Shown one piece after another: positions 55,553 through 55,944 of a stretch of 64,000 nucleotides of DNA (the stretch's first letter is position 1; each line of letters starts with the position of its first letter). Source of the stretch: Mycobacteriaceae bacterium (GTDB taxonomy: Bacteria > Actinomycetota > Actinomycetes > Mycobacteriales > Mycobacteriaceae); contig JAIEPH010000021.1 in NCBI GenBank assembly GCA_019749805.1, positions 41,779 through 105,778 on the forward strand, written 5' to 3'. The notes below the pieces were generated by a model. That model was given only the letters and a program-made list of their open reading frames with translations. It did not search any database and was not told the origin of the DNA. The position numbers were made by a program, and so were the translations under genes.

Positions 55553-55944
55553 CTTCGATCCTTTCGACGTGCGCGCGCCGACCAGACCCGTGCGAGGACG
55601 CACGGGGTACGTGCCTGATCACAGGCCGGGGTTTTGGGCCGCACCGTCTCGGGTAGGTGCAGCAGTGGGAAGCGAAAAGCGCCACACCGGACGATCATGT
55701 CCAGTGGCCGACGGTTGCGTAGTGACCGCTCGGCCCCACTCACACGCAGGTTCGTGGTTTTTGAAATTATTTGCTTCCTGAGAAGCCGTTTAGGACCGTA
55801 CAAACCGATTCGGCGAAAGTCATTTCGGCCAAGATCGTGTCCCGGGTCAGATCACGAACTGATCACGCCGGGCAAAGTCGAACGTCTGCGCAGGTCATCC
55901 GCAAGTTCCCCGAAGCTGAGGTTTTCACAGCTTCGGCGTATCAC

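Follow-up and report, generated by a model that had tools for sequence, protein, structure and literature searches.

Rpf enzymes, which cleave peptidoglycan, are required for dormant mycobacteria to resuscitate, and their mis-expression endangers the cell. In Mycobacterium tuberculosis, riboswitches are already known to control two of the five rpf genes. The ydaO/yuaA c-di-AMP riboswitch (RF00379) is found before actinobacterial rpfA. The RpfB switch, a proposed class III B12 riboswitch, is described as much smaller than earlier B12-sensing switches; it forms a three-way junction, works via an intrinsic terminator and is limited to some of the pathogenic mycobacteria (bioRxiv 10.1101/2024.07.19.603033; PMC6009663). 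For rpfE of M. tuberculosis a long 5'UTR was described in 2026 as "potentially regulated" by a riboswitch of unknown ligand, with Schwenk & Arnvig 2018 cited for the putative riboswitch; two putative in-vitro-selected Rut sites and a Rho-sensitive region lie over this 5'UTR (PMC13650167). No published structural model or family definition of the rpfE leader was found in the literature searched.

The locus described here lies in the window, a stretch of 64,000 nucleotides from an environmental fast grower which was found only in drinking-water DNA metagenomes. The rpfE leader at 55789-55553 (minus strand), about 237 nt long, is a conserved RNA that acts in cis. Its structure is real, strongly supported and found across the genus, and the RNA is probably a regulatory switch. 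The novelty is moderate, the candidate having been flagged before while the family is absent from Rfam. An earlier note on this DNA had proposed an undescribed leader of ~200 nt with at least three stems. A long, structured and conserved leader before the rpfE-locus gene was borne out by covariation and by korB-mobA-gap-rpf synteny, with a greater length of about 237 nt and more helices, including the long-range helix P1. In the literature searched, the word "undescribed" holds for the structural model and the family definition, the putative riboswitch itself having already been mentioned in PMC13650167.

Locus, promoter and transcript

The genes and terminator of the window locus are as follows.

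57204-58274, minus strand: korB
56603-57274, minus strand: MobA-like gene
55232-55552, minus strand: rpfE-type gene of 106 aa with a TTG start and a secreted transglycosylase-like domain (PF06737, E 4e-35)
55211-55175, minus strand: strong terminator hairpin with a 17-bp stem, 3' of the 106-aa Rpf gene
54531-55010, minus strand: second Rpf gene of 159 aa, directly downstream of the first

The spacer between the MobA-like gene and the Rpf gene is 1050 nt long with a G+C content of 57% versus 66%. The korB-mobA-gap-rpf order of the window recurs on an M. tuberculosis-complex-like (MTBC-like) contig, where a saccharopine-dehydrogenase-like gene and valS come next. The order korB-mobA-rpfE-valS corresponds to the Rv2454c-Rv2448c arrangement around rpfE (Rv2450c) in M. 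tuberculosis. Within the gap, G+C is 56% over 55800-56602, and relatives share no conserved ORF there. The hypothetical genes Rv2451 and Rv2452c, annotated in the equivalent gap of M. tuberculosis (PMC4477654, PMC3898074), may not be real genes. The second Rpf gene has its own intergenic region of ~220 nt after the 55211-55175 terminator. It looks like the counterpart of MSMEG_4640 (RpfE2) of M. smegmatis, which has a ~90-nt 5'UTR repressed by the sRNA F6 (PMC8583896).

Two hexamers upstream of the leader were conserved.

55818-55823, minus strand: -35-like hexamer ATGACT, with ATGAC kept in fast growers, slow growers and the MTBC-like contig
55795-55800, minus strand: -10 hexamer TACGGT (TANNNT), with T, A and the final T kept and a variable middle (CGG, CGT, GCG, GGT)

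The pattern ATGAC(T/G)-17 nt-TANNNT precedes the element in 100 of 100 sequences checked, the MTBC-like contig included. This conservation suggests that ATGACT-17-TACGGT (55823-55795) is the sigma-A-type promoter of the rpfE leader. It was found through comparative conservation; a scan for the sigma-70 consensus returned no site. The earlier note had placed the -10 at TAATTT. The last base of that hexamer varies (TAATTC, TAACTA, TAACTC), which does not fit TANNNT, and it sits inside the transcribed RNA (contigs to 55771), downstream of the covarying hairpin P0.

Contigs from seven soil metatranscriptomes, from ~96% identical relatives, join the coding sequence to the leader and end at 55760-55771. 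Among the contigs in which both are joined are X30 (55480-55771) and X28 (55410-55763). None of the seven runs gave coverage upstream of 55785; one further run covers the whole spacer and probably contains DNA. Because of the RNA contig ends and the conserved promoter the transcription start site (TSS) is predicted at 55771 to ~55790, most likely at 55789-55787, and the leader length of about 237 nt follows from this prediction. The element is thus a 5' UTR feature transcribed together with the gene, as expected of a riboswitch, with a predicted 5' end. No terminator-like hairpin was found in the leader, the sole site in 54400-56700 lying downstream of the gene.

Leader lengths are spread evenly over the three frames (57/68/63) and stops occur in each frame in about 90% of leaders. 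A hidden ORF or N-terminal extension was rejected on these grounds, lengths not being multiples of three and stops being present in all frames. Gene callers extend RpfE into the leader: in the window this gives a 123-aa product from GTG 55603, and on the MTBC-like contig (P0121/P0122) one of 188 rather than 172 aa. The extended ORFs are artefacts, and public rpfE annotations often carry a false N-terminus which covers P5, the P1 3' strand and the Shine-Dalgarno sequence (SD).

Further DNA boxes were observed upstream of the promoter. Fast growers conserve CRP-like sites at 55983-55946 (minus strand); on the MTBC-like contig CGTGATTCGGCTCACG is found 414 nt before the rpfE start. CRP activation from such a distance, roughly -160 to -190 relative to the predicted TSS, would be unusual. 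CRP ChIP-seq in BCG gave a top-10 peak adjoining Rv2450c/rpfE (PMC4477654). Direct repeats (C)GTGATC-N5-GTGATC with 11-bp spacing lie at 55866-55850 (minus strand), about -60 to -85 from the predicted TSS, and occupy the same position in the related loci L098, L136 and L364. A third, degenerate copy reads GCGACAC, or GAGATA in relatives. This layout is typical of OmpR-family response-regulator sites. Knock-down of mtrA in M. smegmatis raised rpfE 2^5.1-fold by an "unknown mechanism" (PMC10480492). A further conserved box, ATGACCTGCGCAG at 55898-55886 (minus strand), separates the direct repeats from the CRP-like sites; its form in slow growers and on the MTBC-like contig is CTGACCTGCAA. In M. 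avium subsp. paratuberculosis (L245 1-1026) a transposase gene (PF00872) lies upstream of rpfE at the place of the CRP-like boxes of the other loci, and the direct repeats, promoter and leader are retained.

Fold and conservation of the leader RNA

The leader is comprised of the P0 hairpin, an A-rich linker and a multi-helix domain of ~177 nt (P2 with three branches, P3, P4 and P5) which is closed by the long-range helix P1 (GCGUGUG/CGCGCGC). Its parts are given below from 5' to 3', all on the minus strand.

55773-55786, minus strand: P0, 5'-terminal hairpin GCUUC-UCAG-GAAGC, compensatory changes at 5/5 pairs in both alignments
55748-55772, minus strand: A-rich linker AAAUAAUUUCAAAAA with TAATTT (55769-55764) inside, at least 90% conserved, unpaired in the model
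55757-55749, minus strand: near-invariant CCACGAACC box (CCACGRACC), at least 90% conserved, unpaired in the model
55741-55747, minus strand: P1, 5' strand GCGUGUG, from RNAalifold, pairing with 55577-55571
55665-55739, minus strand: P2 domain, nearly all pairs with compensatory changes
55739-55735/55669-55665, minus strand: P2 stem, base of the three branches
55734-55707, minus strand: P2a branch, covariation
55706-55685, minus strand: P2b branch, covariation
55683-55671, minus strand: P2c branch, covariation
55638-55663, minus strand: P3 hairpin, 98% paired, GC<->AU and UA<->CG swaps in 34-38 sequences
55654-55644, minus strand: near-invariant 10-nt loop of P3, CUACCCGAGACGG in the window and YGACCGAGAYGG in the consensus, at least 90% conserved
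55627-55637, minus strand: J3/4, a C/A-rich single-stranded joiner, variable, C-rich and G-poor in the alignments
55613-55626, minus strand: P4 hairpin GCCUG-UGAU-CAGGC, 95% paired in fast growers with compensatory changes at 5/5 pairs
55587-55606, minus strand: P5 hairpin CCCGUGCG-UCCU-CGCACGGG, 8/8 pairs covarying
55571-55577, minus strand: P1, 3' strand CGCGCGC, inside the conserved GGCGCGCGC block
55559-55565, minus strand: SD GAAAGGA, strong and almost invariant
55552-55550, minus strand: TTG start codon of the rpfE-type gene

The strings quoted in the earlier note were all present on the minus strand (TAATTT 55769-55764, GCACC/GGUGC 55660-55641, the UCCU-looped stem 55606-55587, AGGA 55562-55559 and TTG 55552-55550). 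Two of its stems, GCACC/GGUGC and the UCCU-looped stem, are P3 and P5, and both have covariation support. Its first stem, GCCAC..GUGGC (55681-55708), survives in its core as P2b; the outermost pairs 55708/55681 and 55707/55682 are outside the conserved model because they conflict with P2a and P2c. P4 is weaker in slow growers, with 77% paired. P0 includes 27 U-G pairs at one position, and U-G pairs are workable only on the sense strand. In the leaders of two metagenome-assembled mycobacterial genomes (L133 6818-7016 and L099 1369-1569) a short hairpin replaces the three P2 branches, with P1, P3, P4, P5 and the SD region intact. The P2 branches are taken to be dispensable because they are absent there, and these natural minimal variants would be useful for defining the core. 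Unpaired invariant nucleotides gather in the junctions and the P3 loop, and invariant unpaired bases are likewise clustered in junctions and loops in ligand-binding RNAs.

The 231-nt stretch had a predicted folding energy of -96.8 kcal/mol (z = -3.1), and 1 of 200 shuffles was as good. The first comparison set was made up of eighty Mycolicibacterium loci gathered via the Rpf protein. Conservation in this set was patchy and very strong from the start codon to about 55985, where it stopped. Below about 55790 invariant blocks alternate with variable segments which retain complementarity. The covariance model, R1, had 251 positions and 59 pairs. In the window it found a single copy (55541-55792, 228 bits), with no match on the leader of the second Rpf gene. 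One full-length copy was found in each of at least 88 further fast-grower loci collected by DNA pattern; in the same set six matches were cut by the contig end and five were short and weak. Slow growers had one full-length copy in each of at least 96 further loci, with two more cut by contig ends. Scores were 105 bits for both M. avium subsp. paratuberculosis and M. decipiens. On the MTBC-like contig R1 matched immediately upstream of rpfE (94.4 bits, E 8e-30), ending at TTG AAG AAC GCC, the MKNA... start of RpfE.

The element was present in every fast- and slow-growing mycobacterium examined (>180 species). All 179 evaluable copies are followed by an Rpf gene that starts with TTG or GTG. Among the matches listed none lay away from rpfE, and by these matches the element is restricted to Mycobacterium sensu lato. 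Matches to the pattern GYRCCGAACCGAGAYGGYRC outside mycobacteria were mostly due to chance, the element being present in 0 of 9 checked. Full-length elements were also seen on a 3.8-kb "Chloroflexi bacterium" contig (L116 3293-3549, 208 bits) and on a 509-kb "Solirubrobacterales bacterium" contig (L172 5900-6158, 140 bits). Both contigs are probably mis-binned or mislabelled mycobacterial sequence.

In the fast growers (about 100 species) 89.1% of cells were paired compared to 36-46% in slid controls, and compensatory changes were found at 47 of the 59 pairs. Covariation was 0.262 compared to ~0.05 in controls, a value which 0 of 500 shuffles reached. The 99 slow-growing species took no part in building R1, though their alignment was fitted to it; 87.6% of cells were paired (33-45% in slid controls), with compensatory changes at 45 of the 59 pairs and covariation of 0.343 compared to ~0.045 (0 of 500 shuffles). 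An independent mutual-information scan also ranked the R1 pairs top. The leader thus contains a conserved structured domain with covariation support, as a riboswitch aptamer would. Outside the model the scan for extra pseudoknots or alternative helices returned only clade-marker correlations. The top non-model pairs (window index 41/45/225/250) were markers of fast versus slow growers, some with 0% Watson-Crick pairing, and were rejected.

P1 was found from the alignment by RNAalifold. It was 99.8% paired in fast growers and 100% in slow growers. Of the single-sided changes, some 44 preserve pairing and 1 disrupts it; no clean double compensatory change was seen except at one A-U pair in a single sequence. 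At G-U and G-C pairs, transitions will often be tolerated by chance. On the alignments, support for P1 appears good and weaker than that for the hairpins. The P1 3' strand ends 5 nt before the SD. The mean predicted probability of P1 was 0.19; enforcing it costs +2.5 kcal/mol, and in the window it lies 1 kcal/mol above the minimum free energy. The predictions point to a thermodynamically marginal helix, as would be expected of a switching helix. Predicted SD accessibility changed little between P1-on and P1-off (0.61 vs 0.52). It was higher with P1 on in 78% of sequences, or 55% for the GGA core, and was reversed in the M. avium sequence. In about 40% of the P1-enforced fold predictions the CC of the CCACG box is paired to the GG of the SD. 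The SD, the CCACG box and both P1 strands are almost invariant, so that comparison gives no signal for or against pairing among them. The mutual-information scan found no mutually exclusive alternative structure with covariation support. Two candidates were discarded. A CGR/YYG extension of P1 showed seeming covariation between clades which needs a register shift, and it is not claimed. A local CACG/CGUG hairpin competing with P1 is broken in the CCAAG clade, hence not conserved.

The start codon after the leader was TTG in 144 cases, GTG in 35 and ATG in 0 (n = 179), so the weak non-AUG start pointed out in the earlier note is real and universal. Nucleotide-level conservation extends to the first codons (AAG AAC AUC/GUC). 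Conservation of the start and first codons suggests selection for weak or regulated initiation.

Proposed mechanism and alternatives

The comparisons above show the structure of the RNA and its conservation, and also that it is tied exclusively to rpfE and transcribed together with that gene. We infer in addition a ligand, a direction of switching, an anti-SD role for the CCACG box and an involvement of Rho. In the proposed mechanism the leader would be transcribed from the sigma-A-type promoter ATGACT-17 nt-TACGGT, with P0 at the start of the RNA probably protecting the 5' end. P2, P3, P4 and P5 would radiate from a junction closed by P1, and this ~177-nt domain would be the ligand sensor of an orphan riboswitch. 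The marginally stable P1 would be the switching helix. With P1 locked, its outward extension would set the CCACG box on the SD-proximal bases, initiation at the weak start would fall and the transcript would be exposed to Rho. With P1 open the SD would be free. The switch would act on translation initiation, with Rho as a follow-up. J3/4 may be the Rho entry site, a role suggested solely by the M. tuberculosis literature. Gene context gave no clue to the ligand; the element occurs only before rpfE. The orphan-riboswitch explanation of the leader as a whole, from ligand sensing and P1 switching to the SD and Rho, was judged to be evenly balanced between right and wrong. The more specific proposal is of a new riboswitch class confined to mycobacteria, in which a P1-closed five-helix aptamer senses a growth-state or cell-wall metabolite or a nucleotide and gates RpfE via translation and Rho. 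This proposal is tentative and falls somewhat short of an even chance.

The leader may instead be bound by a protein or a trans-acting sRNA, or have a role in stability or basal translation with no switching. P0 and the strong, constant SD would fit such a role, no ligand clue or covarying alternative fold was found, and in M. smegmatis the UTR of the neighbouring paralogue is controlled by sRNA F6 (PMC8583896) while mtrA knock-down raises rpfE 2^5.1-fold "via an unknown mechanism" (PMC10480492). However, no candidate protein or sRNA site was identified in the leader, and a five-helix domain of ~177 nt with invariant junction and loop bases in >180 species appears too elaborate for a stabiliser. 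The loss of the P2 branches while the core is kept also suggests selection on the core. This alternative is a serious rival, considered less likely than the orphan riboswitch. A stand-alone small RNA, produced by premature termination or processing and acting in trans, is a very improbable main function. Leader-only transcripts may exist in M. tuberculosis, where the 5'UTR overlaps a Rho-sensitive region and Rut sites (PMC13650167), but contigs X30 and X28 join leader to coding sequence, the conserved block has the SD and start codon at its 3' end, and the element was never away from rpfE among the matches listed.

The earlier note had the RNA starting just after TAATTT and the UCCU loop of P5 blocking the AGGA of the SD through a pseudoknot. 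The complementarity is real in the window organism (UCCU 55598-55595, AGGA 55562-55559), and C/U-rich loops are somewhat enriched. When the terminal loops were extracted by folding each P5 region separately they proved hypervariable in sequence and in length (GUCC, CCCG, GUGA, CGAC, UUCG, GAAA, AUCC and others). UCCU is confined to the window, being found in 1 of 76 distinct fast-grower sequences and in 0 of 78 others in the slow-grower set, and any UCC or CCU in 30% of fast growers and 23% of slow growers. The note had itself named a non-conserved loop as grounds for giving the pseudoknot up. With TAATTT not kept as TANNNT and lying within the transcribed RNA downstream of P0, this model is extremely improbable. 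Practically no chance is given to the reading that conservation of the leader reflects DNA-level signals or a hidden small ORF rather than RNA structure. Real boxes do lie just upstream (CRP-like site, direct repeats, -35 and -10) and gene callers do extend the Rpf ORF into the leader, but paired columns compensate with strand-specific G-U pairs, lengths are not multiples of three, stops fall in all frames and RNA contigs cover the leader. The reading is refuted for 55786-55571 and is true upstream of 55795.

Comparison with described riboswitches

A one-line remark in the literature is here turned into a testable object with boundaries, a promoter, a covariation-supported fold and invariant positions to mutate. 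This puts a search for the ligand and reporter work in M. smegmatis directly within reach, and the leader would add a family missing from Rfam. If the new class is true, rpfA, rpfB and rpfE would be three differently wired RNA switches on the resuscitation factors of M. tuberculosis. By homology (R1 94 bits on the MTBC-like contig, synteny) the putative riboswitch of M. tuberculosis rpfE (Rv2450c) is the same element. The literature found on it was without structure, boundaries, family or ligand, whereas the promoter, helices, invariant bases and distribution are defined here.

Searches with Rfam 15 at the gathering threshold gave 0 matches in the whole 64-kb window. Permissive matches in the window and six orthologous loci (a radC-like match on the opposite strand with E 0.8, mir-547 and SorX) were due to chance, and no curated family matches the leader in the Infernal check which the earlier note had suggested. 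Like the c-di-AMP riboswitch RF00379 the rpfE leader is a large multi-helix leader of an rpf gene, but RF00379 returned no match, with cut-offs of E<=10 for the window region and E<=1 for the six orthologous loci. The cobalamin riboswitch families were likewise without a match in the same searches, and the leader is neither a ydaO/c-di-AMP nor a cobalamin element. The earlier note had held that it matches neither the c-di-AMP riboswitch of rpfA nor the RNA switch of rpfB. The RpfB switch is also a cis-acting mycobacterial rpf leader of narrow phylogenetic range. By its description it is set apart from the rpfE leader, which has a P1-closed domain with at least five helices and no terminator-like hairpin and which is found in fast and slow growers alike.

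In translational OFF riboswitches of the SAM-II/preQ1-type logic the P1 helix abuts the SD. The rpfE leader shares with them a P1 3' strand 5 nt from the SD and a P1 predicted to be marginal. It has no sequence or fold relationship to these riboswitches, and sequestration of its SD is the part of the likeness that is proposed here from the model.
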